The position numbers and the translations under genes were made by a program. From an uncultured beta proteobacterium (GTDB taxonomy: Bacteria > Pseudomonadota > Gammaproteobacteria > Burkholderiales > Gallionellaceae): 64,000 nucleotides of DNA. The notes under the pieces were generated by a model. It searched no databases and was not told the DNA's origin. It worked only from the letters and a program-made list of their open reading frames with translations. Position 1 is the first letter of the stretch. Each line of letters opens with the position of its first letter. Positions 5,229 through 60,042 of this stretch are shown piece after piece. Location: the NCBI GenBank assembly GCA_963750775.1, contig CAVVRT010000003.1, positions 155,273 through 219,272 on the forward strand. The letters are read 5' to 3'.

Positions 5229-5238
5229 CTATCGGTGT

Positions 5239-5274
5239 TGCAGCGACTTCCTAACGGCGGTCGCTGCATTTTTT
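5239..5274 (+). terminator. Terminator-like hairpin between btuB and btuM
   Basis: TGCAGCGAC-N12-GTCGCTGCA followed by TTTTTT. Confidence 0.6.
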
Positions 5275-5286
5275 AAGGAGAACAAT

Positions 5287-5844: not shown

Positions 5845-6436
5845 TAACCAAGAACAGCATCAAAAACGCATGGCGCGCAAAAAAAGCGTCATCGACGCGT
5901 CTATCGCCAAAGCCAATGAAGACAAGGGTTTGCTGCTGGTGCTAACAGGCAACGGTAAAGGCAAATCCAGCTCCGCGTTCGGCATGGTGGCGCGCTGTTT
6001 GGGCTACGGATTTAAGGTTGGCGTAGCGCAATTTCTCAAGAGCCGCCGCGACACAGGCGAAGAAAAATTTTTAGGCACGCAAGCTGGTGTGGACTGGCAA
6101 GTGTTGGGCGACGGTTTTACCTGGGACACGCAAGATAAAGCCGCTGATATTGCGACCGCGCAACGCGGCTGGGTCGTGGCACAAGGCTATTTGCGCGATG
6201 CAAGTCTGCATCTGGTGGTGTTGGACGAGCTGACCTATTTGCTCAAATACGGCTATCTCGACAGCGCGCAAGTGTGTGCCGATTTGGCGGCGCGCCCTGC
6301 CATGCAACACGTTGTGATTACGGGTCGTGCCGCGCCCGATTGCTTGCTAGAACTTGCCGACACGGTCAGCGAAATCGCCGATGTCAAACACGCTTATCGC
6401 GCAGGCATCAAGGCGCAGCCTGGCATCGACTTGTAG
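5837..6436 (+). CDS. cobO: Cob(I)yrinic acid a,c-diamide adenosyltransferase
   Basis: LTGNGKGKSSSAFG, VVLDEL, VVITGR, ADTVSEI, KHAY..GIKAQPGIDL; ATG at 5837 overlaps btuM end. Confidence 0.95.
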   Translation: MPDNQEQHQKRMARKKSVIDASIAKANEDKGLLLVLTGNGKGKSSSAFGMVARCLGYGFKVGVAQFLKSRRDTGEEKFLGTQAGVDWQVLGDGFTWDTQDKAADIATAQRGWVVAQGYLRDASLHLVVLDELTYLLKYGYLDSAQVCADLAARPAMQHVVITGRAAPDCLLELADTVSEIADVKHAYRAGIKAQPGIDL

Positions 6437-6446
6437 AAGAAGTCAC

Positions 6447-6573
6447 TAGAAATTCAGATTTTTGGGATGAAGCACAAGAAGCCGCACAGCGAATGACGCA
6501 GACATATCAGATTGATAGACCAGGAATGAGCGCGCACGCGACGCGGTGATTCGCCCAAAAAATGAATTTATAG
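6447..6573. repeat. ~125-bp inverted-repeat (MITE-like) element between cobO and cobB
   Basis: TAGAAATTCAGATTTTTGGGATGAAGCAC pairs with GTGATTCGCCCAAAAAATGAATTTATA; core AGACATATC..GATAG resembles element at 10531..10660. Confidence 0.55.
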
Positions 6574-6582
6574 AGATTTCTT

Positions 6583-7869
6583 ATGCGATTTTGCCCCGCT
6601 CTTTTTATCAGCGCACCCGCCTCTAATCAAGGTAAAACCACCGTCACCGCCGCACTCGCCGCCTACCATCGTGAGCAAGGACGATGCGTGCGCGTGTTCA
6701 AAACGGGGCCCGATTTTATCGACCCGACCATCCTCGCAACGGCATCGGGACACGCGGTGTATCAGCTCGATTTATGGATGGGCAGCGTGGACGAATGCCG
6801 TGCGCGCCTCTATGACGCAGCGGGTGAGGCGGACTTGATTTTGATTGAAGGCGTGATGGGGCTGTTCGATGGCAAGCCTTCCAGTGCCGCTCTTGCCAAG
6901 CAATTTGGCGTGCCCATTTTGGCGGTGATTGATGCCAGCGCAATGGCGCAAACCTTTGCCGCACTCGCTGTCGGACTGGCGTGCTTGGATAGCGACTTAC
7001 CCTTCTTCGGCGTGCTGGCGAATCGTGTCGCCAGCGCACGTCATGCCGAGATGCTGACCGAACATTTACCCGACGATTTGAAATTTTGTGGCGCGTTACC
7101 GCGCGCCGCCGAAATCACCTTGCCCGAACGTCATCTGGGCTTATTGCAAGCTGCCGAACTACCCGACATTGCCGCCCGCATCGCTCATGCGGCAACGCTC
7201 ATGCAGCAACACGGCGTGACCGAACTCCCGCCAGCAGTAGGCTTTGCGCCTGCGCAATTACCCACATTGAAACGCGAATTACACGGTGTAAAAATCGCTG
7301 TGGCGCGGGATGCGGCGTTCTCATTTTTATATCAAGCCAATCTCGATGTACTGCGCGAAATGGGCGCACAACTATGCTTTTTCTCGCCCCTGCACGATGC
7401 CGTTTTGCCTGATTGCGACAGCGTTTATCTACCTGGCGGCTATCCTGAATTGCACCTGCAAAAACTATCCTCCAATGCTGCGATGTTGGCTGCGCTGCGC
7501 GCCCATCACGCGGCCGCCAAACCTATTCTGGCGGAGTGTGGCGGCATGTTGTATGCGCAGCAAACCTTGACCGACCAGCATGGCGCGTCAGCAAATTTAC
7601 TCGGCCTGCTCGATGGCACCGCCGTGATGCAGCCGCGTCTTGCGGCACTCGCTTTGCAAAGCGTGGCGCTGCCGCAAGGCACGTTGCGCGGGCATACTTT
7701 TCACTATTCCAAACTGGAAACTGAGCGGCTACCCGTCGCACGCGGACTGTGCCCGAATGGCTACGCCACGAGCGAAGCGGTGTATCAGCAAGCTCGTCTT
7801 ACCGCGTCTTACATCCATTTTTATTTCCCCTCTAATCCTGCTGCGGTGGCGCAACTGTTCTTGCCATGA
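6583..7869 (+). CDS. cobB: Cobyrinate/hydrogenobyrinate a,c-diamide synthase
   Basis: APASNQGKTT, FKTGPDFIDP, IEGVMGLFDG, LPERHLGL, LPGGYPEL, AECGG, GHTFHYS, ASYIHFYF. Confidence 0.95.
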   Translation: MRFCPALFISAPASNQGKTTVTAALAAYHREQGRCVRVFKTGPDFIDPTILATASGHAVYQLDLWMGSVDECRARLYDAAGEADLILIEGVMGLFDGKPSSAALAKQFGVPILAVIDASAMAQTFAALAVGLACLDSDLPFFGVLANRVASARHAEMLTEHLPDDLKFCGALPRAAEITLPERHLGLLQAAELPDIAARIAHAATLMQQHGVTELPPAVGFAPAQLPTLKRELHGVKIAVARDAAFSFLYQANLDVLREMGAQLCFFSPLHDAVLPDCDSVYLPGGYPELHLQKLSSNAAMLAALRAHHAAAKPILAECGGMLYAQQTLTDQHGASANLLGLLDGTAVMQPRLAALALQSVALPQGTLRGHTFHYSKLETERLPVARGLCPNGYATSEAVYQQARLTASYIHFYFPSNPAAVAQLFLP

Positions 7870-8513
7870 CGCATCGCTATTCCGAATCCGAGCGCGCCGC
7901 CATTTATCGTGTCATCGCCGAGCGACGCGACATGCGCCACTTTTGCGCTACAGCGATTCCCGAAGCAACGCTGCAACGCATCTTGCAAGCAGCGCATCAA
8001 GCCCCCAGCGTGGGGCTGATGCAGCCGTGGCGATTCATCCGCATTAGTGATAGCGCATTGCGCGAAAAAATTTATCAGTTGGTGGCGGCGGAACGGCAGT
8101 TGACGGCAGACACACTGAGCGAACGCGATGCAGAATTTTTGCGCCTAAAAGTGGAAGGCGTGTGCGAATGCGCTGAATTATTAGCCGCCGTATTAGCTCC
8201 CGATGACGGCACGATTTTTGGTCGGCGCACCCTGCCCGAAATGGACTTGGCATCGGTCGCCTGCGCGATTCAAAACATGTGGTTGGCAGCGCGTGCGGAA
8301 GGGCTGGGAATGGGCTGGGTATCGCTGTTTGAGCCGCGCGCCTTAGCGGATTTGTTGCATGTGCCAGCGGGAGGCAAGCCCATCGCCCTTTTATGTTTAG
8401 GGCAAGTTGAAGCATTTTATGCCGCCCCGATGTTGCAACTGGAGGGCTGGCGCAGCGCGCAGCCGCTGGAAAATCTGCTGTTTGAAAATCATTGGCACGA
8501 GCGTGCCGCATGA
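7866..8513 (+). CDS. bluB: 5,6-dimethylbenzimidazole synthase
   Basis: [50 protein letters not shown]. Confidence 0.93.
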
Positions 8514-9442
8514 TGCTCGCGATGACGCTGTGCGCCGCCGTGCTGCTGGATGCCTTACTCGGTGAGCCGAGACGTTTTCATCCCTTGGTCGGGCTAGGCG
8601 ATGTTGCGCGGCGCGTGGAACGCTTTTGCTACCCCGCCAACCGAGCATCCGCTGCGCACCTTTATTGGCGGGGCATTGCGGCGGTGTGTCTGGTTATTTT
8701 CCCCTTCGTGTTACTCGCGGCATGGCTGCAAACTTTGCCCATCGTCGGCGCGATTTTTCCCATCATCGTTTTATATTTTTGTATCGCGCCACGCAGTTTG
8801 CGTGAACACGCCCTGCGCGTGTTCGTTGCCTTGCAAGCCAATGATTTAGCGGCTGCGCGCAGCGCGGTGAGCATGATGGTGAGCCGTGATACCACGCAAT
8901 TAACTGAAAACGGCGTGGCGAAAGCGACGGTTGAATCAGTATTGGAAAATGGTAACGATGCGATTTTTGCCGCGCTATTTTGGTTCGTCGTCGCTGGGCT
9001 GCCTGGCGTGGTTTTGTATCGCTTGAGCAACACGCTGGATGCGATGTGGGGCTATCGCAATGCGCGCTACAACTATTTCGGCTGGGCGGCGGCGCGCCTC
9101 GATGACGCGTTGAATTTTGTCCCCGCACGCCTCACCGCATTGAGCTATGCCTTGCTAGGAAAATCGCGTAGCGCGCTGCATTGTTGGCGCACACAAGCCC
9201 CGTTATGGGACAGCCCAAACGCAGGTCCCGTGATGGCGGCGGGTGCAGGCGCATTACAAGTAAAACTGGGTGGCGCAGCGATTTATCACGGCGTTAGCGA
9301 AGCGCGTCCCTTATTGGGCTGCGGTGCAGAGGTTGCGGCGGGCGACATCCCGCGTGCGGTGGCTTTGGTGCAAGGCGTTTTAGGGTGGTGGCTGGCGTTG
9401 ATTTTGCTCGTGTCAGGCGCATGGGAGATAGCTCATGCTTGA
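8510..9442 (+). CDS. cbiB: Adenosylcobinamide-phosphate synthase (CbiB/CobD)
   Basis: [44 protein letters not shown]; ATGA overlap with bluB. Confidence 0.95.
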
Positions 9443-12146
9443 ACACGGCGGACGAATTAAGCGCGCCGTACTGCACTACGGCATCGCCGAAAAACACTGG
9501 CTGGATTTATCCACGGGGGTGAATCCGCATGGCTGGCTAGCCCCTGTCGTGCCGCAAACAGAATGGCAAGCCTTGCCACAAGACGATGACGAATTAGCGT
9601 CTGCTGCCGCCGCGTATTACGCTGGCGAAAAACAAATGACTGCTCACTCGCTCCCTCGCCCCATGGGAGAGGGTTGGGGTGAGGGAGCAAGCGACAACGT
9701 GACCGCCCTCACCCTAGCCCTCTCCCAAAGGGAGAGGGAACTCCCCAGTTCTTCCTTACTCGCGGTGGCAGGTTCACAAGCCGCGATTCAAGCCCTGCCG
9801 CGTTTATTTTCACCCAGCCGCATAGCGATTCTCACCCCCAGTTATGCCGAACATGCGCACGCTTGGCAGCAAGCAGGGCATGAGATTGTTCGCCTAAACC
9901 CTACGCAAATTTTGCAGCCTGAAGCGGCGATAAAAATCGTCGTCATCGTCAATCCCAACAACCCCACTGGGCAGCTTTTTAGCCGTACTGATCTCTTGGC
10001 GTTACATGAAAAATTAGCAGCGCGCGGCGGCACACTCATCGTCGATGAAGCCTTTATGGATGGCACGCCAGATGGCAGTTTGCTGGGCGATAGTCCACGC
10101 GCAGGCTTAATTGTGTTGCGTTCCATCGGCAAGTTTTTTGGCTTGGCGGGCGCGCGTGTCGGCTTCGTTTTTGCGCAGCAAAACATCCTCGACGCTTTGC
10201 GCGAATTACTTGGTCCGTGGCCGATTGCTGCACCGTCGCGTTATGTCGTCACACGCGCTTTACGCGATGAAAAATGGCAAGCCACCACGCGCAAAAAATT
10301 GCAGCTAGCAAGTGTGCGTTTGTGTGATTTGCTCGAACAACATGGCTTAACAGTCACTGGCAGCACGGCTTTGTTCGCATGGTTGCAACACCACGATGCT
10401 GAAAAAATTCACACCCAACTGGCGCAACAAGGCGTACTGACGCGCTTATTTAATCAACCGTCTAGCTTGAGATTTGGCTTGCCGCGCGATGAAGCGCAAT
10501 GGGGGCGACTGGCGGTGGCGTTACAAACTCTGAACAAATTGAGTGAGGGGGATGCAGTGCAAGGCGCACGGAACGCAGCGAGCGAGACATACCCCGTGGG
10601 TAGGCGAGTAAGCGAGTACCGCGCAACGCCGCAATGCGCCGCCTCGCACAATTTGTCGCACACCGTGATGGTGCAAGGCACGACTTCGGACGCTGGGAAA
10701 AGCACGCTGGTTGCTGCGCTGTGCCGTTGGTTGGTAAGGCTAGGCGTTGCAGTCGCGCCGTTTAAGCCACAGAACATGGCGTTGAATAGTGCGGTAACGG
10801 CTGATGGCGGCGAGATTGGGCGGGCGCAAGCGGTGCAGGCGATGGCGGCAAACATTGCGCCGCACACCGATATGAATCCCGTGCTGCTCAAGCCCAATAG
10901 CGACACGGGCGCGCAGGTCATCATTCACGGTCGCGCCATCGGCAATATGGAAGCGCTCGACTATCACGCCTATAAAAGCACTGCATTCGCGGCGGTGATG
11001 CAATCGCATGGTCGCCTCATCAAACAGTATCAAGCGGTGGTGGTAGAAGGCGCGGGCAGCCCCGCCGAAATCAATTTGCGTGCGGGCGACATCGCCAATA
11101 TGGGCTTTGCCGAAGCGGCGGATTGCCCCGTGATTTTGATTGCCGATATTGATCGCGGTGGGGTATTCGCGCACTTGGTCGGCACGCTAGATTTGCTGTC
11201 AGAATCAGAACAAGCGCGCGTGGTCGGCTTCGTCATCAACCGTTTTCGCGGCGATATTGCCTTGCTGCAAGACGGGCTGGATTGGCTGGAAGCGCGCACA
11301 GGCAAGCCTGTGTTGGGCGTGTTGCCGTATTTACACGGCTTGCATTTAGAAGCAGAAGACGCGCTGCCTATTAGCATTTCCACACAAAGTCCCCCACCCC
11401 AACCCTCCCCCGCAAGCGGGAGAGGGAGTATGCGCATCGTCGTCCCTGTTTTTCCGCACATCAGCAATCACACCGACTTCGACGCGCTGCGTTTGCATCC
11501 GCAAGTCGAACTGATTTTCGCTCCCATTACCGCGCCTTTGCCGCCCGCCGATTTAATTATTTTGCCAGGCAGCAAATCAGTGCGCAGCGACTTGGATAGC
11601 GTGCGCCGTGCGGGCTGGGAGGCGCAGCTACAACAGCATCTGCGCTATGGCGGCAAGCTCATCGGCATCTGCGGCGGGATGCAAATGTTGGGTGAAAAAA
11701 TTCACGACCCACTGGGAATTGAAGGCGAATCTGGTATGAGCAAGGGCTTGGGCTTGCTGCGCTTTGAAACCACCCTTGCGGCGGAAAAACAATTACGCAA
11801 TGTCAGCGGCAACTTGTTGTTGGCAGGTAATACGGCGGTGTCGGGTTACGAAATTCACGCGGGTATTACTACAGGTGCGGCACTCGCAAAACCCCTGCTG
11901 TGCTTGGGCGGAAAGGACGATGGCGCAATCTCGGACGACGGCAATATCCTCGCAACATATCTACATGGCTTGTTTGAATCCAGTGCCGCAACGGCAGAAA
12001 TTTTGCGTTGGGCGGGATTACAAGAGGTGCAAGATTTTGATTATGCCGCGCGCCGCGAAGCCGATTTAGAACGCTTGGCGGATGCGGTCGAGCAGCATTT
12101 GGATACGCAAAAATTGGCGGGATTATTTGGAGTGAATGATGCGTGA
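9435..12146 (+). CDS. cobQ: Fusion of threonine-phosphate decarboxylase (N-terminal, PLP) and cobyric acid synthase CobQ (C-terminal)
   Basis: N-part [38 protein letters not shown]; C-part [45 protein letters not shown]; one 903-aa ORF. Confidence 0.9.
9651..9739. repeat. Inverted doublet of CCCTCTCCC-N-GGGAGAGGG palindromic repeat, in frame within the decarboxylase domain
   Basis: CTCCCTCGCCCCATGGGAGAGGGTTGGGGTGAGGG ... CCCTCACCCTAGCCCTCTCCCAAAGGGAGAGGGA. Confidence 0.85.
10531..10660. repeat. 130-bp inverted-repeat element forming the linker of the decarboxylase-CobQ fusion
   Basis: TGAACAAATTGAGTGAGGGGGATGCAGTGC pairs imperfectly with GCAATGCGCCGCCTCGCACAATTTGTCGCA; core GAGACATACC..GGTAGGCGAG. 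Confidence 0.65.
11391..11426. repeat. Single palindromic repeat copy in frame within CobQ
   Basis: CCCCCACCCCAACCCTCCCCCGCAAGCGGGAGAGGG encodes [12 protein letters not shown]. Confidence 0.8.
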
Positions 12147-23808: not shown

Positions 23809-24858
23809 ATGAAAAGCACTATGAAACAATTAGTTTTAAGCATCGCTGCGGTATCGAGCATGGCATTCGCTAACGTGAGTTCTGCCACTGACATCACAGG
23901 CGCAGGCGCGACGTTCCCTTACCCTATCTACGCAAAATGGGCTGAAGCCTATAAGGCGCAAGGCGGTTCTAACATGAACTACCAATCTATCGGTTCAGGT
24001 GGTGGTATCAAACAAATCACCGCAAAAACAGTTGATTTCGGCGCGTCAGATATGCCTTTGAAGCCAGAAGATTTGGAAAAGAACGGCATGATGCAATTCC
24101 CTACCGTGATCGGCGGCGTAGTGCCCGTGATTAACGTCAACGGTATTGCAGCAGGTCAGTTGAAATTAGATGGCACAACTTTAGCGGACATCTACTTGGG
24201 CAAAATCACTAAGTGGAATGACGCAGCGATTGCCGCGTTGAACAAAGACATGAAGCTGCCTGATGAAAACATTACCGTGGTACATCGTTCAGATGGTTCA
24301 GGCACGAGCTTTATTTTTACTAACTACTTGTCAAAAGTAAGTGCGGATTGGAAAGCAACCGTAGGCGAGGGTACAGCGGTGTCATGGAAAGCGGGCACGG
24401 GCGGTAAAGGTAACGAAGGCGTGGCTTCTTATGTGCAACGTATCAAAGGTTCGATTGGTTATGTTGAATATGCTTACGCTTTGCAAAACAAAATGACTAG
24501 TGTGCAAATGAAAAATCGCGATGGTCAATTTGTTGCCGCGAATGAAGATTCATTCAAAGCCGCAGCAGCAGGTGCGCATTGGGACAAAGCTCCTGGCTTC
24601 TACGAAATCTTGACTGACGAAGCAGGCAAAGCCGCATGGCCGATTTCAGGTGCAACTTTCATCCTGATTCACAAAGCCCAAGAAAAACCAGAGTCAGGTA
24701 AAGAAGTATTGAAATTCTTTGACTGGGCTTACAGCAACGGCGGAAAATTGGCAGGTGATTTGGACTACGTTGTGATGCCAGAAAGCGTTATCAAGCTGAT
24801 ACGCGCTACTTGGAAAGCGCAAGTTAAAGACACAGCAGGTAAGGCAATCTGGAAGTAA
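23809..24858 (+). CDS. pstS: Phosphate ABC transporter substrate-binding protein
   Basis: TGAGATFPYP, YQSIGSGGG, DFGASD, HRSDGSGT, GYVEYAY. Confidence 0.98.
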   Translation: MKSTMKQLVLSIAAVSSMAFANVSSATDITGAGATFPYPIYAKWAEAYKAQGGSNMNYQSIGSGGGIKQITAKTVDFGASDMPLKPEDLEKNGMMQFPTVIGGVVPVINVNGIAAGQLKLDGTTLADIYLGKITKWNDAAIAALNKDMKLPDENITVVHRSDGSGTSFIFTNYLSKVSADWKATVGEGTAVSWKAGTGGKGNEGVASYVQRIKGSIGYVEYAYALQNKMTSVQMKNRDGQFVAANEDSFKAAAAGAHWDKAPGFYEILTDEAGKAAWPISGATFILIHKAQEKPESGKEVLKFFDWAYSNGGKLAGDLDYVVMPESVIKLIRATWKAQVKDTAGKAIWK

Positions 24859-24873
24859 CTGGTAACGGGTTTA

Positions 24874-24965
24874 TATGTATCTCGAAAAATTCTAAAATTT
24901 TAGAGCGACATACGAGGTAGAAATACCTTGCTCGGTTATACTGACGGGGGCTGCAAAGCCCCCGT
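24874..24965 (+). other. Three consecutive hairpins in the pstS-pstC spacer
   Basis: 24874-24912 imperfect stem; AGGTA-GAAA-TACCT (24915-24928); ACGGGGGC-TGCAAA-GCCCCCGT (24944-24965). Confidence 0.55.
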
Positions 24966-25066
24966 GTTCATCGGGAAACCCCGTAAATTTTGATTCGATT
25001 AGCTCTTATGTCGAGACAGCATTTACGAGGTTTCCTCTTATTTGACCTCTATATAAAGCCCTCACT

Positions 25067-26029
25067 ATGTCGATGTTCTCACTCGAAGCGAAGTTGAAAC
25101 GCCAAGCCTTATTAGACTTGGCGTTTCGTAGTCTGACGCGGGTTTCCGCCTTTGGCGTACTGGTGTTATTAGCTGCCATCATCGCGTCCTTAGTGATCGG
25201 CAGTATGCCCGCCATCCACGCCTTTGGCTTCGGCTTTTTAACGAGCCCAGAATGGGATCCTGTCAACGATAAATTCGGCGCGTTGATTCCGATTGTCGGC
25301 ACGCTGATTACTTCAGGCATCGCCTTGCTCATCGCGATCCCCGTCAGTTTTGGTATTGCGATTTTCTTGACCGAATTGTCGCCGCGTATCTTGCGTCGCC
25401 CACTCGGTATCGCCATCGAATTATTGGCAGGAATCCCCAGCATTATCTATGGCATGTGGGGCTTATTCGTGTTCGCGCCACTGTTCGCTGACCACGTTGA
25501 ACCGTGGCTCAACGATCGCATCGGCCCGCTGCCATTTATCGGCGAATTTTTTATGGGCGCACCTATGGGTATCGGCATCCTCACCGCCAGCATTATCTTG
25601 TCCATCATGGTGATTCCCTTTATCACCTCAGTGATGCGCGACGTGTTCGATGTGGTGCCGACGCTGCTCAAAGAATCCGCTTACGGCTTGGGCGCGACGA
25701 CTTGGGAAGTGATGTGGAAAGTAGTGTTGCCTTATACAAAAGTCGGCGTGGCGGGCGGCATCATGCTGGGGCTGGGGCGCGCCTTGGGCGAAACCATGGC
25801 AGTGACATTTGTGATTGGTAACGCGCACGAACTGGGCAAGTCACTACTCAATCCGGGCAACAGTATTTCGTCTGCCTTGGCGAATGAATTTACCGAAGCC
25901 ATCGGCGAGCTGTACACCTCCTCGCTTATCGAGCTCGGCTTGATATTATTTTTCATCACCTTCGTGGTGTTGTCCCTCGCCCGCTACATGTTGTACAAAC
26001 TGGGCAAACGTGAAGGTCAAGCGGCGTAA
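25067..26029 (+). CDS. pstC: Phosphate ABC transporter permease
   Basis: [37 protein letters not shown]. Confidence 0.97.
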
Positions 26030-26034
26030 CTCTT

Positions 26035-26886
26035 ATGACAAATAATTCTTTATATACACGTCGCCGCATCATCAATGGCGCAGGGCTAACGATTTCAGTT
26101 TTGGCGATGGGCTTCGGTTTATTTTGGCTGTGCTGGATTTTATGGACGCTGTTGGCGAACGGTTTGCCCGCACTCACTGCTGCCGTGTTCACGCAAATGA
26201 CTCCGCCACCTGGCAGCTCTGGCGGCTTGTTGAATGCGATTGCCGGCAGCTTGATGATGACGGTGCTAGGCACTGCTATTGGCACACCCATCGGCATTTT
26301 GGCGGGAACGTATCTGGCGGAATTCGGTCAGCGCGGCTGGATGGCACCCGTCACGCGCTTTATTAACGACATCTTGTTATCCGCGCCGTCGATTGTGATT
26401 GGGCTGTTTGTGTACGAAGTGTATGTGGTGCAAATCAAACATTTTTCGGGTTGGGCAGGCGCATTGGCATTGGCGATTTTGGTGATTCCGATTGTGATAC
26501 GTACCACCGAGAACATGCTGCGTTTAGTGCCCTCCACCTTGCGCGAAGCCGCTGCCGCATTGGGCGCACCGCAATGGAAAATCATCAACTTCGTTACCTT
26601 GCGCGCCGCGCGTGCAGGGATTATCACGGGCATCATGTTGGCGATTGCCCGCATCAGCGGCGAGACCGCCCCGCTCTTGTTTACCGCGTTGAACAATCAA
26701 TTTTGGAGCAGCAATATGAATCAGCCGATGGCGAGTTTGCCCGGCGTGATTTTCCAATTCGCCATGAGCCCGTATGAAGACTGGAAGAGTCTGGCGTGGG
26801 CGGGCGCGTTGCTGATTACCCTAAGCGTTTTAACCCTTAACATTTTGGCGCGTGTATTGTTCCGCCAAAGCTCAACTACCCATTAG
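26035..26886 (+). CDS. pstA: Phosphate ABC transporter permease
   Basis: [35 protein letters not shown]. Confidence 0.97.
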
Positions 26887-26978
26887 CAATCCAAATCTCG
26901 TCGCAATACGTCGTTGCTTATATTTGAATGTCTAGCAAGGCACATTTGCATGATTATTTATCCAACAAAGGTTTTTTT

Positions 26979-27755
26979 ATGTCAACTGAAACCATCATCA
27001 CCAATCCCAAAGTCATCGTTAAAGACTTGAACTTTCACTACGGTAACTACCGTGCGTTGAAAGACATCAATCTCAACATCGCCGAAAAAATGGTCACCGC
27101 TTTTATCGGTCCATCGGGTTGCGGAAAATCGACTTTGTTGCGCACCTTTAATCGCATGTATGAGCTTTACCCTAAGCAAAAAGCTACGGGTGAAATCATT
27201 CTCGACGGCGCGAATGTGCTGGATGCCAAACAAGATTTGAATATGCTGCGCGCCAAAATAGGCATGGTGTTTCAGAAGCCGACACCGTTTCCGATGTCGA
27301 TTTACGACAACATCGCGTTCGGCGTAAAACTGTATGAAAATTTAAGCAAACACGACATGGAAGCGCGCGTGGAATGGGCGTTGAAAAAAGCCGCGTTGTG
27401 GACAGAAGTTAAAGACAAACTCAAACAAAGCGGCACAGGCTTGTCTGGCGGTCAGCAACAACGTTTGTGTATCGCGCGCGCCATCGCGGTTAAACCGCAA
27501 GTGCTGTTACTTGACGAACCCACTTCCGCGCTCGATCCGATTTCCACCGCGCACATCGAAAAACTCATCGACGAATTGAAAGAAGATTTCACCATCGTCA
27601 TCGTCACGCACAATATGCAGCAAGCCGCCCGCGTGTCCGATTACACCGCCTATATGTACCTAGGCGACCTAATCGAATTCGGCGAAACCAGCACCGTGTT
27701 CACCAACCCTAAACGCAAAGAAACTGAAGACTACATCACAGGCAGATTTGGTTAA
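26979..27755 (+). CDS. pstB: Phosphate ABC transporter ATP-binding protein
   Basis: [48 protein letters not shown]; ATG at 26979. Confidence 0.98.
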
Positions 27756-53793: not shown

Positions 53794-54672
53794 TTAACGT
53801 GCGGCGCGTAAGGCGGCGATGCGTTCTTCTAAAGGCGGATGGGTCATAAATAGTTTCATCGCGCTGCCGCCTGAAATGCCTGATGCCGCCATGTCTTTTG
53901 GCAAACTGGCTTGCTCGTGATTCATCTTTAAGCGTTCCAACGCGGCGATCATTTTTTCACGTCCTGCTAAGGATGCACCACCTGCATCGGCACGGAATTC
54001 GCGTTGGCGCGAGAACCACATCACGATGATGCTCGCCAGCACACCCAAGACTAATTGCGCCGCCATTTCGGCGACAAATGAGCCGATGCCAGGACCGTCG
54101 CGACCATCGTGTTTGAGCAAAACTCTATCAACAAAAATGCCAAATAATTTCGCGAACATAAACACAAAGGTGTTCACCACGCCTTGTATCAAGGTCAGCG
54201 TAATCATGTCGCCGTTAGCAACGTGGCTGATTTCGTGCGCCAACACCGCTTCGACTTCGTCTTTGCTCATGTTGTCCAACAAGCCGCGACTGACCGCCAC
54301 CAGTGCGTTATTTTTATTCCAGCCCGTGGCAAACGCGTTGACATCGGGCGCTTCGTAAATCGCTACTTCGGGCATACCGATATGCGCTGCCATCGCCTGA
54401 CGTTTAACGGTATCGACCAACCAGCGTTCGGTCGGGTCGGCAGGGTTGGTAATCACTTGCGCATTGACCGAACGCTTCGCCATCCATTTCGACATCAGCA
54501 GCGAAATAATCGAACCCGAAAAGCCCACCACCAGTGACATCACCAGTAGGCTATTAAAGTTAATCGCGCCACTGGCATCGAGCACTTTGTCCACACCGAG
54601 CAAGCGCAGTGTCACGCTAATCACCAGCATCACTGCCAAGTTGGTCACAATAAATAAAAAGATACGTTTCAT
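53794..54672 (-). CDS. htpX: Protease HtpX
   Basis: MKRIFLF..TN, NAFATG, LAHEISH, FSRQREFRAD, THPPLEERI. Confidence 0.97.
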   Translation of the reverse strand: MKRIFLFIVTNLAVMLVISVTLRLLGVDKVLDASGAINFNSLLVMSLVVGFSGSIISLLMSKWMAKRSVNAQVITNPADPTERWLVDTVKRQAMAAHIGMPEVAIYEAPDVNAFATGWNKNNALVAVSRGLLDNMSKDEVEAVLAHEISHVANGDMITLTLIQGVVNTFVFMFAKLFGIFVDRVLLKHDGRDGPGIGSFVAEMAAQLVLGVLASIIVMWFSRQREFRADAGGASLAGREKMIAALERLKMNHEQASLPKDMAASGISGGSAMKLFMTHPPLEERIAALRAAR

Positions 54673-54835
54673 GGCATTGTCCTTAAATAAAAAATTCGCC
54701 GCGCAGTTTACCTTACGACTTGCCCTTAGATGGCGCGAGTGGAAAAAGTTTCAAGAGCGCAATACCCGCTAAAATGCGCGCCTTTTTGGCGGGCTGAATG
54801 TTGCTTGCCGCATCAACTTAGAGAGGCGCATCACC

Positions 54836-55633
54836 ATGCAAACCTTATTGCATCATCCTTATTTCGTCGCCGCCGCCGCACCCTTTTTAGTCGCGCTGCT
54901 TGCCGCCGAATTGTTTTTGCGCATCCGTTTAAGTGGTTTGGCTCTTATCGCGGGCTTCGCTATCACGGTTTTTTTAGTTGCCAATTTTGGCCTGCATCCG
55001 CTCACGCTCACCCAACAAATTATTTGGACAGCACTCGCGGCAAGTTTGCTCGGTGTGCTATTTAGCTTAATCGACTGGCCGTGGCTGAATACCTTGCTAC
55101 CGTTGGCAGGCGTGGTGCTGGCGGTGTGCTTATTGTGGCCACTGGTGCAGCAACATGCGCCACTCAAAATGCTGATTTTGTTGGCGAGTAGCGCGGGCTT
55201 CGTCGGTTTACTGGTGTGGGGGATGGATAACTTAATAGACGTACCGTTGCGCGCCGCCAATGCCGCGACAGCATTGGGCTTGAGCACGGGCATCGCGGTA
55301 TGGAGCAGCACAACTTTATACGGCGAATTTGCTTTGAGCATGGGCTGTGCTGCGGCCGCACACTTGCTGATACAGATGATTAGCAATCAAGCCTTGGCGG
55401 CTGAGCGCGGCTTCACTTTGCCCGCCAGTTTAGTCATCGGCATCATTGCCTGCGTGGCGTTAGTGGCAGGGCATTTGCCTTGGTATTGCTTGCCCTTAAT
55501 GGCAGCGATTCCTCTGTTGGCGTGGGTCATGCCGCTGCCAAAAATGGCGGCACTGCTGCAAAGTTTATTGCTCAGTGTGATGACTGTGCCGCTGGCACTC
55601 GGCGTAGTTTATTTAGCGCACCATCCACTGTAA
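54836..55633 (+). CDS. Hypothetical multi-pass membrane protein
   Basis: 265 aa, many hydrophobic helices, no recognised motif. Confidence 0.7.
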   Translation: MQTLLHHPYFVAAAAPFLVALLAAELFLRIRLSGLALIAGFAITVFLVANFGLHPLTLTQQIIWTALAASLLGVLFSLIDWPWLNTLLPLAGVVLAVCLLWPLVQQHAPLKMLILLASSAGFVGLLVWGMDNLIDVPLRAANAATALGLSTGIAVWSSTTLYGEFALSMGCAAAAHLLIQMISNQALAAERGFTLPASLVIGIIACVALVAGHLPWYCLPLMAAIPLLAWVMPLPKMAALLQSLLLSVMTVPLALGVVYLAHHPL

Positions 55634-55670
55634 GTTTGCAAAAAACACTTTTATCTCTATAGTGCGCGCC

Positions 55671-55973
55671 ATGTTTCGCTCCCTACTCCCTCGCATTCTG
55701 CTCATCACCGCCTTACTGTTTGCGCAGTTAGGCGGCTTGACGCATGGCATTTCACATGCCTTGGCAGAACAGAGTTCGGAGCAATCGCTGCCGCATGACA
55801 AGCATTGCGATTTGTGCGCGGCGTATGCGCAGATCGGTGCGGCGGTCGCGAGCAGCGACATCGTATTTGTCAGCCGCGACACGCATTTCACCCCCGCTAC
55901 GCACTACTTCACCACTCACGCCAGCGACGCTTTTGTCGCCTTTGCCGCGCGCGCTCCGCCTTACTCCGCATAA
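55671..55973 (+). CDS. DUF2946/CruR-like leader peptide (TM segment, His, CxxC, C-terminal RAPP)
   Basis: MFRSLLPRILLITALLFAQLGGLTHGISH...HDKHCDLC...FAARAPPYSA*. Confidence 0.8.
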   Translation: MFRSLLPRILLITALLFAQLGGLTHGISHALAEQSSEQSLPHDKHCDLCAAYAQIGAAVASSDIVFVSRDTHFTPATHYFTTHASDAFVAFAARAPPYSA

Positions 55974-55986
55974 CGCTTATTCAACT

Positions 55987-56023
55987 TCCTCGCGATAATC
56001 ATCGTGAGGATTTTTATTGTTTT
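55987..56023 (+). terminator. Intrinsic terminator/attenuator after the leader peptide
   Basis: TCCTCGCGAT-AATC-ATCGTGAGGA (10 bp, one G-U) followed by TTTTTATTGTTTT. Confidence 0.7.
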
Positions 56024-56038
56024 ATGTGGAGTCAAAAA

Positions 56039-57328
56039 ATGTTCAATCAGAAATTTCTGAGCGTGGCGATTGCCGCGCTATTCGTGCCGTCTATCCATTC
56101 CGCTTATGCCGCCAGCGATGCCGAAGTGCAAACTTTGCGCGACGAAGTAAGGCTACTCGCGGAACGTATCAATCAAACTGATGCTAAAACTGCCGCGCCC
56201 GCCGCGAGTGCTAACGCCTTCAACCCCGCCGTGTCGCTGATTTTGGGCGGCACTTACGCCAAGCTATCGCGCGACCCCGCTATTCCTGCCACGGGTTTTG
56301 CGATGGCCGCCAATCCAGCTCATCCGCAAGGCTTCAATCTGGGCGAATCTGAGCTCGGCATTTCCGCTGACATCGACCCTGAATATCGCGGCTTTGCCAC
56401 CATGGCACTTGCGCCTGCGGGCGGCATTACGGTGGAGAACGCCTTTATCCAAAGCAGCGCGTTGGGCAACGGGCTGAATGTTAAATTCGGTCGCTTCTTT
56501 TCAGGTCTCGGTTATCTCAACGAGCAACATGCGCACGCTTGGGATTTCGTCGATCAACCTTTGGTATATGCCGCGCTGTGGAACAACCAAATTGGCGAAG
56601 ACGGTGTGCAACTTAAATGGCTCGCGCCGACCGAAACTTTTGTCGAACTAGGTGCAGAAGTTGGGCGCGGACGCAGCTTTCCCGCCACCGACACCAACCG
56701 CAATGGTACGGGTGCAACCGCTTTATTTGCGCATGTCGCCGACGATATTGGCGTGGCACATAGTTGGCGCGCGGGCGCATCGCTGTATCAAACGCAACGC
56801 CAAAATGCGCAGAGTTTTAACGTGCCAGATTTGCTCGGCAGCGTCGGCGGGGTGACGAATAGTTTTACGGGCAACAGCCAAACCGCAGGCTTGGATTTCG
56901 TGTGGAAATACGCGCCGAACGGCAACATCCGCGACAAATATATCAAGCTGCAAGGCGAAATTTTCCAGCGTAAAGAAAACGGTGTACTCACTTACAACTT
57001 GCTCACGCCTAGCACTTACAGCAACACGCAAAACGGCTGGTATATGCAAAGCGTGGCGCAATTTATGCCGCACTGGCGCACTGGTTTGCGCTATGACCGC
57101 ATGAACGCTGGCACGGCAAATGTCGGTGCGACGAATCTAGCCAATGTCATCAGCAACTACGCCTACAACCCGACGCGTACCTCTTGGATGTTGGATTACA
57201 GCCCCAGTGAATTCTCGCGTTTGCGCCTGCAAGTCGCCCGCGATCTGACGCGACAAGGGCAGCCTGACAATCAAATTTTTGTGCAATACCTGATGAGCAT
57301 GGGCGCGCACGGCGCGCATAGTTATTAA
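56039..57328 (+). CDS. Outer-membrane beta-barrel (porin-like) with His motifs, putative metal uptake
   Basis: GGAG RBS, signal peptide, short coiled coil, FNPAVSLIL, NEQHAHAWDFVD, YSPSEFSRLRLQ, C-terminal GAHGAHSY. Confidence 0.75.
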   Translation: MFNQKFLSVAIAALFVPSIHSAYAASDAEVQTLRDEVRLLAERINQTDAKTAAPAASANAFNPAVSLILGGTYAKLSRDPAIPATGFAMAANPAHPQGFNLGESELGISADIDPEYRGFATMALAPAGGITVENAFIQSSALGNGLNVKFGRFFSGLGYLNEQHAHAWDFVDQPLVYAALWNNQIGEDGVQLKWLAPTETFVELGAEVGRGRSFPATDTNRNGTGATALFAHVADDIGVAHSWRAGASLYQTQRQNAQSFNVPDLLGSVGGVTNSFTGNSQTAGLDFVWKYAPNGNIRDKYIKLQGEIFQRKENGVLTYNLLTPSTYSNTQNGWYMQSVAQFMPHWRTGLRYDRMNAGTANVGATNLANVISNYAYNPTRTSWMLDYSPSEFSRLRLQVARDLTRQGQPDNQIFVQYLMSMGAHGAHSY

Positions 57329-57346
57329 ATGACCAAAGGAAAAATC

Positions 57347-58243
57347 ATGAAAAAAATTATTTACGCATTCGTTGCCCTGCTGATTAGCAACGCAGCCCAC
57401 GCCGCACTCAATGTGTTCGCGTGCGAACCCGAATGGGCGGCACTCACACAACAACTGGCGGGCGAACAAGCGCACATTTATACCGCCACGACTGCGCTGC
57501 AAGATCCGCATCGCGTCGAAGCGCGTCCGAGTTTGATTGCTCAAGCGCGTCGTGCCAATTTGGTGGTTTGCACAGGCGCAGAACTAGAAATGGCGTGGCT
57601 GCCTGTGGTGCTGAGAGAGTCAGGCAACACTGCTGTGGCGGCGGGCAGCTTGGGGAATTTTGAAGCAGCGCAATTTGTAAAAATGTTGGAAGTGCCGATG
57701 CGTTTGAATCGTGCCGATGGCGATGTTCATGCCGCTGGCAACCCACATATTCAAACCGATGCGCGTAATTTTTTGCCCATTGCCGAGGCGTTAAGCAAAC
57801 GTTTGATTCAGCTGGATGCCGCCAATACCGCGCAATACCAGCAACGCCTCGCCAGCTTCAATCAGCAATGGCGCGCCGCGATGACGCGTTGGGAAAAACA
57901 AGCCGCGCCGCTCAAAGGTTTGCCCGTCCTAGTGCAGCATCGAGGCTTTCCGTATTTGAACAACTGGCTGGGTTTGCAACAAGTCAGCACGCTAGAGCCT
58001 AAGCCTGGTATGGAACCCAGCGCGTCGCACTTGGCACAAGTGGTCAACGAACTGCAAACCCACCCCGCGAAAATCGTCATCCGCGCCGCTTATCAAGACG
58101 CGCGCCCGTCGGAGTGGATTGCGCAACGCGCCAAAATAGCGGCGGTGATGCTGCCTTACACAGTAGGCGGCACGCTGCAAGCGACGGATTTATACACGCT
58201 GTTTGATGACACGATTGCGAGGTTGTTGGCGGGGCTGCACTAG
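57347..58243 (+). CDS. Metal ABC transporter substrate-binding protein (ZnuA/TroA-like)
   Basis: QDPHRVEARPS, DVHAAGNPHI, VQH.GF, LEPKPG.EPS. Confidence 0.9.
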   Translation: MKKIIYAFVALLISNAAHAALNVFACEPEWAALTQQLAGEQAHIYTATTALQDPHRVEARPSLIAQARRANLVVCTGAELEMAWLPVVLRESGNTAVAAGSLGNFEAAQFVKMLEVPMRLNRADGDVHAAGNPHIQTDARNFLPIAEALSKRLIQLDAANTAQYQQRLASFNQQWRAAMTRWEKQAAPLKGLPVLVQHRGFPYLNNWLGLQQVSTLEPKPGMEPSASHLAQVVNELQTHPAKIVIRAAYQDARPSEWIAQRAKIAAVMLPYTVGGTLQATDLYTLFDDTIARLLAGLH

Positions 58244-58246
58244 CTT

Positions 58247-58367
58247 GTCATTCCCGTGAAAACGGGAATCCAGATAATTCAATGCGCTCCGCGCAGCGGA
58301 ACAACCACGGCAAATTTTACGCTGCGCGTAACGTTTTTTGCTGGATTCCCGCCTACGCGGGAACGAC
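58247..58367. repeat. CGTC/ATTCCC-type REP doublet
   Basis: GTCATTCCCGTGAAAACGGGAATCCAG ... CTGGATTCCCGCCTACGCGGGAACGAC with inner GCGCAGCG/CGCTGCGC. Confidence 0.85.
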
Positions 58368-58386
58368 GGACTCACCAAGGATATTT

Positions 58387-59133
58387 ATGAACGCCATCGA
58401 ACTTTCCATCCTGATTCCTGCTTTTATCGCGGGGCTGTTGGTGCTTGCTACGCACATTCCGCTGGGCATCAAAGTGTTGCAGCGCGGAGTCATTTTTGCT
58501 GACCTTGCAGTGGCGCAAATCGCGGGCTTAGGCATCGTTATCGCGGGACTATTTGAACTCACTGACCAGCCTGTTTTAGTGCAGCTTATCGCCGCCTTAA
58601 GTGCCTTATGCGGTGCGGCTTTACTGACGTTTATCGAAGCGCGCTTTAACGACGTGAAAGAGGCGTGTATCGGGCTGACTTTTGTGTTGGCGGCAACGGC
58701 GGGAGTTTTATTGATGAGCCGCGATGTGCATGCGGGCGAGCATCTCAAAGATTTATTGGTCGGACAAATTTTATGGGTGAGCAGCCCGCAACTAATGTAC
58801 ACCGTCGCCTTGAGTAGCTTGCTGCTGTTGGCTTTGCGCTACTTGCCCGACCGTTTTCAGCAACGCAGTTTCTACGCTTTATTTGCCTTAGCTGTCACCG
58901 CTTCGGTGCAATTAGTCGGCGTGTATTTAGTTTTCGCCAGCCTGATTGTGCCCGCCCTCGCGACCTATCGCCTCACCCGTCACCGCCTGTTTTTCGCGGG
59001 CATGGTGGGTATCACAGGCTACGCGGCAGGACTGCTGCTATCGGCTAGCTTCGACTTACCCGCAGGTGCGGCGATTGTGTGGACGATGGCAACAGTAGGC
59101 GGCGTGATTTTGATTACAATGCGCGCCCTTTAG
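58387..59133 (+). CDS. Metal ABC transporter permease (ABC-3/ZnuB-like)
   Basis: LATHIPLG..VL.RG.IF.DLAVAQIAGLG, G.ILW, GVYLVFASLIVPA. Confidence 0.85.
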   Translation: MNAIELSILIPAFIAGLLVLATHIPLGIKVLQRGVIFADLAVAQIAGLGIVIAGLFELTDQPVLVQLIAALSALCGAALLTFIEARFNDVKEACIGLTFVLAATAGVLLMSRDVHAGEHLKDLLVGQILWVSSPQLMYTVALSSLLLLALRYLPDRFQQRSFYALFALAVTASVQLVGVYLVFASLIVPALATYRLTRHRLFFAGMVGITGYAAGLLLSASFDLPAGAAIVWTMATVGGVILITMRAL

Positions 59134-59140
59134 AAAGCAG

Positions 59141-59189
59141 GATTCGGGATTCGGGATTCGGGATTCGGGATTCAGGATTCGGGATTTGG
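59141..59189. repeat. Heptamer tandem repeat (GATTCGG)x7, two units imperfect
   Basis: Read directly; followed by CTCACCA-type heptamers at 59209-59229. Confidence 0.95.
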
Positions 59190-59235
59190 AAACCCCACCG
59201 CGCTCCGACTCACCACTCACCACTCACTACTTAAC

Positions 59236-60042
59236 ATGACCGACCGTTACGCCGTTATCGGCAACCCCATCAATCACAGCAAATCGCCGCTGATACACCA
59301 AATGTTTGCCGCACAAACAGGCGAAGATATTCGCTATGAAAAAATCGAAGCTCCGCTGGACGGCTTCGCCGCGACCGTGCAACGCTTGATTGATGAGGGC
59401 TACAAGGGCTGCAACGTGACGGTGCCGTTTAAGTTTGCGGCGTTTGAATTAGCCACTGAAAAACACCCGCGCGCCGCCAGTGCGCTGGCTGCCAACACGC
59501 TGCTTTTTACCCCAGCAAAAGTGACCGCAGACAACACCGACGGGGCAGGCTTAGTGCGCGACATTGAACAAAATTTGAACGTGAGTTTGCGCGGTAAACG
59601 CGTGTTGCTGATGGGTGCAGGCGGCGCGGCGTATGGCGTGGCGTTGCCTTTGCTCATCACTGGCTGCGCATTAAGCGTAGTGAATCGCACTGTCGCAAAA
59701 GCGCAACAACTCGCCGCGAATTTCGCGCCATACGGCCACCTCAAAGCCTATGCGTATGAAGATTTAACCGGCTTGCAATTCGATGTCGTTATCAACGCCA
59801 CGTCTAGCGGTTTAAGCGATGAGCTCGCCCCGCTCCCCGCCAGCATTTTCGCCCAACACGCACTCGCCTACGACATGATGTACGGACGTGAAACGCTGTT
59901 TATGCAGTTCGCTAAACAGCATGGCGCACAAGTCGCGGATGGCTTGGGCATGTTGGTCGAACAAGCGGCGGAAGCGTTCTTCATCTGGCGCGAGTTACGA
60001 CCCGATACCGCGCCTGTCATCGCGGCGTTGCGCGCGCTATGA
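59236..60042 (+). CDS. aroE: Shikimate dehydrogenase
   Basis: GNPI.HSKSP, G.NVTVPFK, DNTDG.G, GAGGAA, INATS, DGLGMLVEQAA. Confidence 0.97.
   Translation: MTDRYAVIGNPINHSKSPLIHQMFAAQTGEDIRYEKIEAPLDGFAATVQRLIDEGYKGCNVTVPFKFAAFELATEKHPRAASALAANTLLFTPAKVTADNTDGAGLVRDIEQNLNVSLRGKRVLLMGAGGAAYGVALPLLITGCALSVVNRTVAKAQQLAANFAPYGHLKAYAYEDLTGLQFDVVINATSSGLSDELAPLPASIFAQHALAYDMMYGRETLFMQFAKQHGAQVADGLGMLVEQAAEAFFIWRELRPDTAPVIAALRAL

Follow-up and report, generated by a model that had tools for sequence, protein, structure and literature searches.

We analysed a 64,000-nucleotide (nt) stretch of DNA, hereafter the window, from an uncultured beta proteobacterium of the Gallionellaceae (GenBank assembly GCA_963750775.1, contig CAVVRT010000003.1, positions 155,273 to 219,272 of the forward strand). 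Near its distal end a leader open reading frame (ORF) of 100 amino acids precedes genes for a porin-like outer-membrane barrel, a ZnuA-family metal-binding protein and an ABC-3 permease. The Shine-Dalgarno (SD) sequence of the first of these cargo genes is paired with the last codons of the leader in a conserved stem, the arrangement of the SD-shielding CutF-cutO and SecM-secA switches. We consider it probable that the leader is a metal-sensing arrest-peptide upstream ORF (uORF) of the CruR/CutF (DUF2946) family, wired as a translational switch for the barrel and ZnuA-type uptake system. Related loci were collected for comparison, 80 from GTDB species genomes and 8 from assemblies (L001-L088), and almost all come from iron oxidisers of the Gallionellaceae (Gallionella, Sideroxydans and Sideroxyarcus).

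A CruR-type leader with a C-terminal arrest motif

The leader and its parts are as follows.

55671-55973, forward strand: leader ORF (uORF), 100 amino acids, DUF2946/CruR family, recognised by ORF reading, a PF11162 match and homologues; it begins MFRSLLPRILLITALLFAQLGG.
55683-55739, forward strand: N-terminal hydrophobic segment, residues 5-23, with R3 and R8, a putative export signal or N-in membrane anchor, read from the sequence.
55794-55817, forward strand: candidate metal-binding motif H42-D-K-H-C46-D-L-C49, with H42, C46, D47 and C49 invariant in the leader alignment.
55950-55961, forward strand: RAPP arrest motif, residues 94-97, codons CGC GCU CCG CCU, with a predicted stall that places Pro96 (55956-55958) in the ribosomal P site and Pro97 (55959-55961) in the A site.

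The initial annotation of the window had described a 100-residue ORF with a hydrophobic N terminus, four histidines, a CDLC motif and a RAPP close to the stop codon, all of which were found where it had placed them. The hydrophobic run is uninterrupted from residue 9 to residue 23 and, together with the preceding R3 and R8, is kept in the leader alignment; the four histidines (His25, His29, His42 and His45) all lie N-terminal to C46-D-L-C49; and RAPP is followed by Y-S-A and then the stop codon at 55971-55973. The suggested relationship to DUF2946 was confirmed above the Pfam threshold, as the leader matched PF11162 over residues 24-97 with 28.2 bits against a curated cut-off of 23.7 (E = 3.4e-6). 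Twenty of 28 aligned relatives matched the same model.

A search of 5.8 billion proteins yielded 482 leader homologues, and motifs were counted in the best 120 of them. RAPP was present in 118, with RGPP and RSPP in one each, always three residues short of the stop, and CxxC was present in 119. Of 118 close homologues, 115 share the 44-residue spacing from CxxC to RAPP seen in the window leader. When 1.84 billion cluster representatives were searched with a profile, 957 clusters were found, and in 137 of the 150 top ones the spacing was 44 or 45. [quoted passage not shown] Because of the PF11162 match, the CxxC, the RAPP three residues before the stop, the 44-residue spacing and the N-terminal segment, the leader is to be counted, by every criterion testable on sequence, as a member of the DUF2946/CruR family. 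The CruR-type leader with CxxC and C-terminal RAPP postulated in the initial annotation is thereby borne out.

The residues L16, F17, Q19, G21, H25, H29, H42, C46, D47 and C49 are invariant in the alignment, with H25-x3-H29 directly after the hydrophobic segment. The N-terminal half is conserved, the middle third highly variable and the C terminus, FVAFAARAPPYSA, conserved again; this pattern would be expected of a sensor joined to an arrest peptide and not of a folded protein. Both H-x3-H behind the hydrophobic segment and H-x3-C-x2-C were common across family representatives, and the idea that the extra histidines mark a sensor for another metal was dropped for this family-wide recurrence. 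For annotation purposes the leader is a real gene, for which we propose the name CruR-family regulatory leader peptide instead of hypothetical protein.

The two proline codons of RAPP (55956-55961) showed a bias of their own. Across 75 loci the first was CCG, CCA or CCU and never CCC, and the second was only CCU or CCC and never CCG or CCA, yet CCG is the commonest proline codon in the genes of these loci (41%). This strict bias is not obviously explained by RNA pairing and may relate to the identity of the A-site tRNA-Pro during arrest.

The last leader codons pair with the Shine-Dalgarno sequence of the cargo gene

The leader is separated from the first cargo gene by 65 nt in the window, and the cargo SD, GGAG, lies 7 nt upstream of the ATG at 56039. 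Four RNA elements occupy this region.

55963-55973, forward strand: 5' arm of the outer helix, the anti-SD ACUCCGCAUAA, formed by leader codons 98-100 and the stop codon (UAC UCC GCA UAA), recognised by fold and codon bias.
55987-56010, forward strand: inner GC-rich hairpin of 10 base pairs with a 4-nt loop, 55987-55996 pairing with 56001-56010 and including one G.U pair.
56011-56018, forward strand: U tract UUUUUAUU, seven U in eight, which together with the hairpin resembles an intrinsic terminator or a hairpin-dependent pause site.
56022-56032, forward strand: 3' arm of the outer helix, UUAUGUGGAGU, which holds the cargo SD GGAG at 56028-56031, recognised by folds, pair counts, accessibility and permutation.

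The folding energy of the segment 55940-56045 is -32.7 kcal/mol (z = -4.1), a value not equalled by any of 200 dinucleotide shuffles. The inner hairpin, which begins 13 nt past the leader stop, is nested in a longer stem made up of three helices: the SD:anti-SD helix on the outside, a middle one in which the stop-codon region pairs with the U-rich stretch, and the GC-rich hairpin itself. Most loci have a short intergenic region (53-69 nt), and in all 59 distinct ones of this kind the minimum free energy fold has this three-helix architecture. Neither the outer helix nor the leader promoter and the C-rich, G-poor 3' part of the leader described below had been noted in the initial annotation.

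The codons that form the anti-SD are constrained at the RNA level. Ser99 was encoded by UCC in 65 of 69 serine codons compared with a background of 16%, and Tyr98 by UAC in 51 of 57 (89%) compared with 41%. Where residue 98 was changed to Cys, Arg or His, the codon was still of the form NNC, so that CUCC was kept. Both the synonymous bias and these replacements point to selection on the RNA and not only on the peptide.

On a structure-blind MAFFT alignment, 77.6% of the cells of the outer helix could pair, against 40-51% when the partner was slid by one to three columns; the covariation score was 0.191 against 0.07-0.12 for the slid partner, and none of 500 shuffles reached the observed values. 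Compensatory changes were seen at three pairs of the outer helix and five of the inner hairpin, in which one column (46/73) is C-G in 23 sequences and U-A in 21. From the same alignment RNAalifold recovered no more than the inner hairpin's core, plus one short helix that is spurious, with indels shifting the 3' arm out of register; the named-structure test and alignment-free tests were used in its place. A search of 55300-56400 against Rfam gave no match at E values up to 1.

The alignment-free tests gave the same picture. The predicted probability that the SD is unpaired had a median of 0.001 in the leader loci compared with 0.42 for 130 control gene starts from the same loci (Mann-Whitney p = 2e-23), and on average 88% of the SD pairing was with the last three leader codons and stop. 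The duplex between each leader end and its own ribosome-binding site had a mean energy of -13.8 kcal/mol, compared with -12.16 +/- 0.25 for permuted partners (0 of 5000 permutations) and -8.0 for shuffled sequences. When the footprint of a ribosome at RAPP was forced to be single-stranded, the median probability of an unpaired SD rose to 0.27; for the window itself it reached 0.54.

In 16 loci with longer intergenic regions (79-156 nt), REP-like (repetitive extragenic palindrome) or other palindromes replace the hairpin, and the outer helix was still the predicted fold in 15 of them. It was also kept in loci in which the cargo is a TonB-dependent receptor. Because the outer helix survives where the hairpin is replaced, the conserved RNA element is the SD:anti-SD pairing and not a terminator, and the enclosed hairpin behaves as an exchangeable clamp.

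The leader heads a conserved outer-membrane and metal-transport operon

The leader is followed on the same strand by three cargo genes.

56039-57328, forward strand: cargo gene 1, a 429-amino-acid porin-like outer-membrane beta-barrel with a signal peptide (AYA/AS) and an N-terminal coiled coil, assigned from sequence, an AlphaFold2 model and Foldseek.
57329-58243, forward strand: cargo gene 2, a ZnuA-family (cluster A-I) periplasmic metal-binding protein (PF01297, 1e-39).
58387-59133, forward strand: cargo gene 3, an ABC-3 family metal permease (PF00950), likely start ATG at 58387 in a frame open from 58282.

The order leader, Pfam-less porin-like protein of 400-470 amino acids, ZnuA-family protein, ABC-3 permease and aroE was found in about 75 of 86 loci, among them that of the cultured Gallionella capsiferriformans ES-2 (CP002159.1). 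At the leader locus the window is about 95% identical to metagenome-assembled genomes (MAGs) of Sideroxydans and Gallionella. The cargo thus differs from that described for CruR, as the initial annotation had remarked.

The barrel family is large, with more than 7,900 homologues at E < 1e-5, and matched none of the Pfam and NCBIfam models. The AlphaFold2 model of the window protein was of low confidence (predicted local distance difference test score 54), with beta strands in the C-terminal two thirds. All Foldseek matches of this low-confidence model were outer-membrane barrels (OmpT, OprP, OprO), at template-modelling scores of 0.3-0.4, and a sequence-profile search of the PDB gave nothing meaningful. 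Taken together this supports, within the limits of the model, a porin-like outer-membrane beta-barrel of no specific porin family. Source databases name its homologues inconsistently as TonB-dependent receptor, carbohydrate porin or phosphate-selective porin.

The best solved relative of the ZnuA-like protein was Synechocystis ZnuA (2ov1). The DPH, NPH and QH motifs of the window protein align with the histidine ligands of Synechocystis ZnuA (2ov1/1pq4), so that the three-histidine site of zinc-type binding proteins is kept. Of the components of a ZnuABC-type importer, PF01297 and PF00950 are present and the ATPase is absent from the cluster; no ABC ATPase gene was found in the cluster in the window or in any of L001-L088. 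The ATPase for the ZnuA/ABC-3 pair may lie elsewhere in the genome; the ABC ATPase genes located near 20.2, 27.4 and 38-39 kb of the window are parts of other systems.

In four loci (L028, L069, L077 and L083) a TonB-dependent receptor replaces the barrel behind the same leader subfamily and the same SD:anti-SD stem. As these loci carry the classical CruR cargo behind the same type of leader, the porin-like barrel appears to occupy the slot of an outer-membrane importer. Three of the four receptors have an N-terminal CarboxypepD_reg domain. The NCBIfam copper-receptor model did not match the alternative receptors, with scores far below the cut-offs, and since NCBIfam assigned them no substrate they give no hint of the metal. 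L069 belongs to a MAG of the Mariprofundaceae (Zetaproteobacteria), a hint that iron oxidisers have exchanged the cassette.

Most relatives have a tonB-like gene that ends shortly before the leader begins. In most Gallionella loci (L002, L005, L087/L088 and others) RNase II-like and tonB-like genes lie directly upstream. In the lineage of the window (L001, L007-L010) this place is taken by a conserved 265-amino-acid multi-pass membrane protein (54836-55633 in the window), which matched no Pfam or NCBIfam family and whose gene adjoins that of an HtpX-like M48 peptidase on the opposite strand.

The ZnuA-like and permease genes overlap or abut in relatives, unlike in the window, where the REP-like palindromes GTCATTCCCGTGAAAACGGGAATCC and GGATTCCCGCCTACGCGGGAAC lie between them at 58247-58273 and 58344-58368. 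This insertion has created a spurious N-terminal extension of the permease ORF from 58282. Metagenome word depth rises from about 25 to 950-1870 across 58303-58463, which marks a high-copy element, and related palindromes are found inside the leader-cargo intergenic region of some relatives, such as L049. Between the permease stop and aroE are two heptanucleotide tandem repeats, (GGATTCG) x 6.7 at 59140-59186 and (ACTCACC) x 3.4 at 59208-59231, at which metagenome contigs vary in length (joints skipping 104 or 261 nt). Elsewhere in the window, an overview of the ORFs showed a 602-amino-acid TonB-dependent-receptor-like ORF beside cobalamin-biosynthesis-like ORFs at 3420-12146 and a pstSCAB-like phosphate transporter cluster at 23809-27755.

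A conserved promoter directly abuts the leader start

55636-55663, forward strand: sigma-70-type leader promoter, -35 TTGCAA at 55636-55641, 16-nt spacer, -10 TATAGT at 55658-55663.

This was the sole promoter-like site within 54600-59400. A separate promoter between the hairpin and the cargo start at 56039, a possibility raised in the initial annotation as one that would speak against leader control, was thus not seen. The -10 hexamer of the window ends exactly 7 nt (GCGCGCC, GC-rich) upstream of the leader ATG, and in 35 of 35 distinct well-matching loci a -10 hexamer (TAAAGT, TAGAGT, TATAGT or TAGAAT) lies at exactly that distance. The spacer is 17 nt in 28 of the 35, the -35 element is of the TTGnCn type and, where tonB is present, the promoter starts directly behind the upstream tonB stop. 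None of 47 leaders had an SD-like tetramer upstream of its ATG. Because the -10 ends 7 nt before the ATG and an SD is missing, the leader mRNA is probably leaderless or has a one-nucleotide leader.

A proposed translational switch

The family membership of the leader, the conservation of its motifs and of the operon, the RNA-level constraint on the SD:anti-SD helix and the promoter geometry are direct observations, and from them we infer the following switch. Transcription of the leader would start at its own promoter and probably yield a leaderless mRNA. The nascent leader peptide would carry an export or anchor segment and an H-x3-C-x2-C metal site 44 residues before RAPP, and the ribosome would arrest with the two proline codons of RAPP in the P and A sites. 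In the free mRNA the UAC UCC GCA UAA arm would pair with the cargo SD arm and bury the SD; the arrested ribosome would cover the anti-SD arm, so that the SD is exposed and the cargo translated, and release of the arrest would let the stem re-form. The geometry agrees with such a switch. Toeprints place the Pro-Pro of RAPP in the P and A sites in CruR, whose arrest was shown in the Escherichia coli PURE system, and in ApdA/ApdP (PMC12992588). With these positions, a footprint reaching to about +15 from the first base of the P-site codon (55956) would end at the stop codon and cover the anti-SD arm, which starts at +7.

Occupancy of the metal site in the nascent chain would set the duration of arrest. 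By analogy with CruR, metal would most likely release the arrest, and plentiful metal would turn the operon off; we favour this direction because the motif, its spacing and an importer-like, uptake-type cargo are shared with CruR. Untranslated cargo message would be open to Rho loading on the C-rich 3' end of the leader, and the hairpin with its U tract might contribute pausing or partial termination, both of which would reinforce the off state. Rho-dependent reinforcement is plausible by analogy, and it is possible that hairpin and U tract act as a pause site or a constitutive partial terminator.

Several points weigh against this switch. Double changes in the outer helix are few, as SD and anti-SD are both constrained, and they lie mostly at the helix edges; relatedness of the loci inflates the shuffle and permutation statistics; and the modelled opening of the SD on stalling is partial. 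In the window, the hairpin with its U tract resembles a good terminator. CruR, which is nearest in its motifs, acts through Rho and not through SD masking, and the precedent for SD masking, CutF, has the opposite response to metal; homology therefore does not tell which way the response goes here. The binding protein among the cargo looks, from its ligand motifs, to be of zinc type, whereas the characterised sensors of the family respond to copper, although family members need not all be copper-specific (PMC9973294). Finally, the public runs holding the locus are metagenome contigs: in three candidate RNA runs the word depth was flat and informative ends were lacking, as in metagenome assemblies.

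Alternative mechanisms

We regard it as unlikely that CruR-type control by Rho is the main mechanism and SD masking is secondary. The feature on which this explanation would rest is the following.

55880-55975, forward strand: C-rich, G-poor stretch towards the 3' end of the leader, which may be a rut site for Rho loading, recognised by composition over 77 loci.

The arrested ribosome would here shield the C-rich 3' end, the U tract and hairpin would pause RNA polymerase, and metal would free the ribosome so that Rho terminates transcription before or within the porin-like gene. The geometry of RAPP and CxxC matches that of CruR, and a hairpin with U-rich sequence behind it is well suited to hairpin-dependent pausing. 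Between about -90 and +15 relative to the leader stop, C makes up 34-49% and G 12-17% (a C/G ratio of 2-3) across the 77 loci, compared with 29% and 28% in the cargo genes. This richness in C is kept though the encoded protein varies, and the mapped rut region of cruR is a comparable 'C>G bubble' (PMC9426467). The stretch therefore fits a Rho mechanism, which could be the main one. Some of this C content is, however, dictated by the codons for Arg-Ala-Pro-Pro and by the CUCC anti-SD, leader and cargo are separated by 65 nt here as against 162 nt in Bordetella, and the strong and specific conservation of the SD:anti-SD pairing would be unneeded if Rho acted alone. Rho control and SD masking are compatible and may act together.

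A switch that works in the CutF direction appears distinctly unlikely. Periplasmic metal bound to H-x3-C-x2-C would delay co-translational export and prolong the arrest; excess metal would turn the cargo on, and the cargo would serve sequestration or detoxification instead of uptake. The conserved export-like N-terminal segment would suit this, as would a 44-residue spacing that might put the CxxC near the periplasmic mouth of SecYEG at arrest, and the SD-shielding stem is arranged as in cutF-cutO. The leader nevertheless has RAPP three residues before the stop, as in CruR, and not the CxxxC and PPP of CutF. The barrel, ZnuA-type protein and permease, and the TonB-dependent receptor in four loci, look like an importer, and importers are normally repressed by their metal; tonB adjoins the leader in most relatives. 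For CruR, regulation withstood removal of the signal segment.

The initial annotation had proposed that the ribosome controls an intrinsic terminator, formed by the hairpin at 55987-56010 and the U tract, with the heptamer TCGCGAG at 55846-55852 as an antiterminator that the ribosome frees or covers. We consider this improbable. Its elements are present as described, namely a 10-base-pair hairpin 13 nt past the ORF, seven U in the next eight nt and a heptamer complementary to the left arm of the hairpin, and terminator-like sites of this kind are about 16-fold enriched, occurring in 31 of 76 loci as against 2.6% of random 68-nt windows. The role given to the heptamer did not hold up. Complementarity between hairpin arm and leader averaged 4.51 nt within a locus and 4.43 nt in permuted pairs, with 31.5% of permutations reaching the observed value, and L007 has an identical hairpin arm without the heptamer; the antiterminator was rejected. 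Nor does termination fare better as the regulated step. By geometry the leading edge of the ribosome would be near 55971 with Pro96 in the P site and near 55985 at the stop codon, about 16 nt and 1-3 nt before the hairpin base at 55987. As neither position reaches the hairpin, neither would block it, and regulated intrinsic termination is disfavoured. The other 45 of 76 loci have no terminator-like site, the outer helix is kept in 15 of 16 loci whose hairpin has been replaced, and the U-rich stretch has a second role as the 3' arm pairing with UAA-A/G behind the leader stop.

That the small protein is itself a working periplasmic or membrane metal chaperone, with the stem-loop a constitutive damper or mRNA-stabilising end and no arrest, is highly improbable: the first proposal for DUF2946, a role in copper homeostasis, was based on its co-fitness with a copper receptor (bioRxiv 10.1101/072470), and the N-terminal half and its His and Cys residues are well conserved, but the middle third is highly variable, the C-terminal FVAFAARAPPYSA, its fixed distance to the stop and the fixed CxxC spacing are hallmarks of an arrest peptide, neither the CruR nor the CutF protein can be detected in vivo and both act solely in cis (PMC9426467, PMC9973294), and the RNA-level constraint on the last codons would go unexplained.

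Novelty and implications

The initial annotation had seen in the locus its strongest candidate for an undescribed system, which goes too far: descriptions of this family, of its arrest motif and of stem-loops that shield an SD have already appeared (PMC9426467, PMC9973294, bioRxiv 10.1101/2025.02.05.636593, PMC12992588), and a Sideroxydans lithotrophicus homologue is already in the list of CruR homologues (Roy et al. Table S1). Compared with the main texts of this literature, four features are new: the cargo, in which a porin-like barrel is joined by a ZnuA-type protein and an ATPase-less ABC-3 permease; the position of the anti-SD within the three codons that follow RAPP; an apparently leaderless promoter arrangement; and the use of the module as a cassette before alternative outer-membrane cargo in iron oxidisers.

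Nascent-peptide sensing of metal in the ribosome was described only in 2022-2025, and its two prototypes differ in output (Rho or SD unmasking) and in direction. The present locus points to an uncharacterised family of outer-membrane barrels and an ATPase-less ZnuA/ABC-3 pair in the metal acquisition of iron-oxidising bacteria. It also offers a simple handle on the mechanism, as recoding Ser99 from UCC to AGC leaves the protein unchanged and could separate the role of the peptide from that of the RNA.

A more far-reaching reading, which we offer tentatively and as possible rather than probable, is that promoter, leaderless CruR-type uORF and SD:anti-SD stem form a portable cassette before interchangeable outer-membrane cargo in Gallionellaceae and one member of the Mariprofundaceae, controlling an undescribed route of metal acquisition, possibly of copper for respiratory oxidases. 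The route would comprise a porin-like barrel that lacks a plug and is encoded beside tonB, a binding protein of the ZnuA fold and an ABC-3 permease with no ATPase of its own. If true, this would extend nascent-chain sensing of copper or another metal to a new class of importer and combine a CruR sensor with a translational output in the style of SecM or CutF.

Comparison with known systems

The trp, his and pyrBI attenuators likewise have a short ORF, a GC-rich hairpin and a U tract ahead of structural genes. Unlike in those systems, there is here no conserved antiterminator pairing, the ribosome would not reach the hairpin, and the hairpin is exchangeable for palindromes.

ApdA and ApdP (PMC7897499, PMC10987492) share with the leader the RAPP core, a stall with Pro-Pro in the P and A sites, which is predicted here, and an N-terminal localisation signal. 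They lie upstream of Sec or YidC components, have no CxxC and fall outside DUF2946; the genes downstream of the present leader are an outer-membrane barrel, ZnuA and an ABC-3 permease, and not those of an ApdA/ApdP-type localisation monitor. The same switch logic as proposed for the leader is found in SecM-secA of E. coli, MifM-yidC2 and VemP-secDF2, and the RAGP of SecM takes the same conformation in the peptidyl-transferase centre as RAPP (PMC12992588). These three, however, sense protein export or insertion by pulling force and not metal, are unrelated to the leader in sequence and control different cargo.

CutF of Rhodobacter capsulatus (cutFOG; PMC9973294, bioRxiv 10.1101/2025.02.05.636593) belongs to a DUF2946-like family and acts in cis, and a short intergenic stem-loop, which the stalled ribosome is proposed to melt, shields the SD of the next gene. 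It differs from the leader in its CxxxC and PPP-type motif and in its dependence on elongation factor P and a Sec signal; copper induces its stalling and turns on a detoxifying oxidase; and its anti-SD lies in the intergenic stem-loop, whereas here it lies in the last codons of the uORF itself. The leader would work like CutF at the RNA level, but with CxxC and RAPP in place of CxxxC and PPP it is not a CutF orthologue.

CruR (Bp2923) of Bordetella pertussis, encoded in cruR-bfrG(crtA)-bp2921 (PMC9426467, PMC12992588, PMC12914433), is of the same Pfam family as the leader and shares its export-like N terminus, its CxxC and a RAPP exactly three residues before the stop, at a spacing of 45 residues as against 44 here. 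Both are the first gene of a metal-uptake operon with outer-membrane cargo and have a C-rich, G-poor 3' part, and in four related loci a TonB-dependent receptor follows the same type of leader. CruR is longer (about 145 residues compared with 100), has a 45-nt 5' untranslated region where the present leader is apparently leaderless, and is followed by an intergenic region of 162 nt instead of 65. Its cargo is a TonB-dependent receptor and a PepSY_TM protein, whereas a plug-less porin-like barrel, a ZnuA-type protein and an ABC-3 permease are found here. For cruR, which acts through Rho, no SD:anti-SD stem has been reported, while the present locus holds one with its anti-SD in the last three codons. 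That the three codons are the anti-SD suggests a reason for the fixed geometry of RAPP plus three codons in this branch of the family, and the locus joins a CruR-type sensor (CxxC, 44-45 residues, RAPP, three codons, stop) to an SD-masking output.

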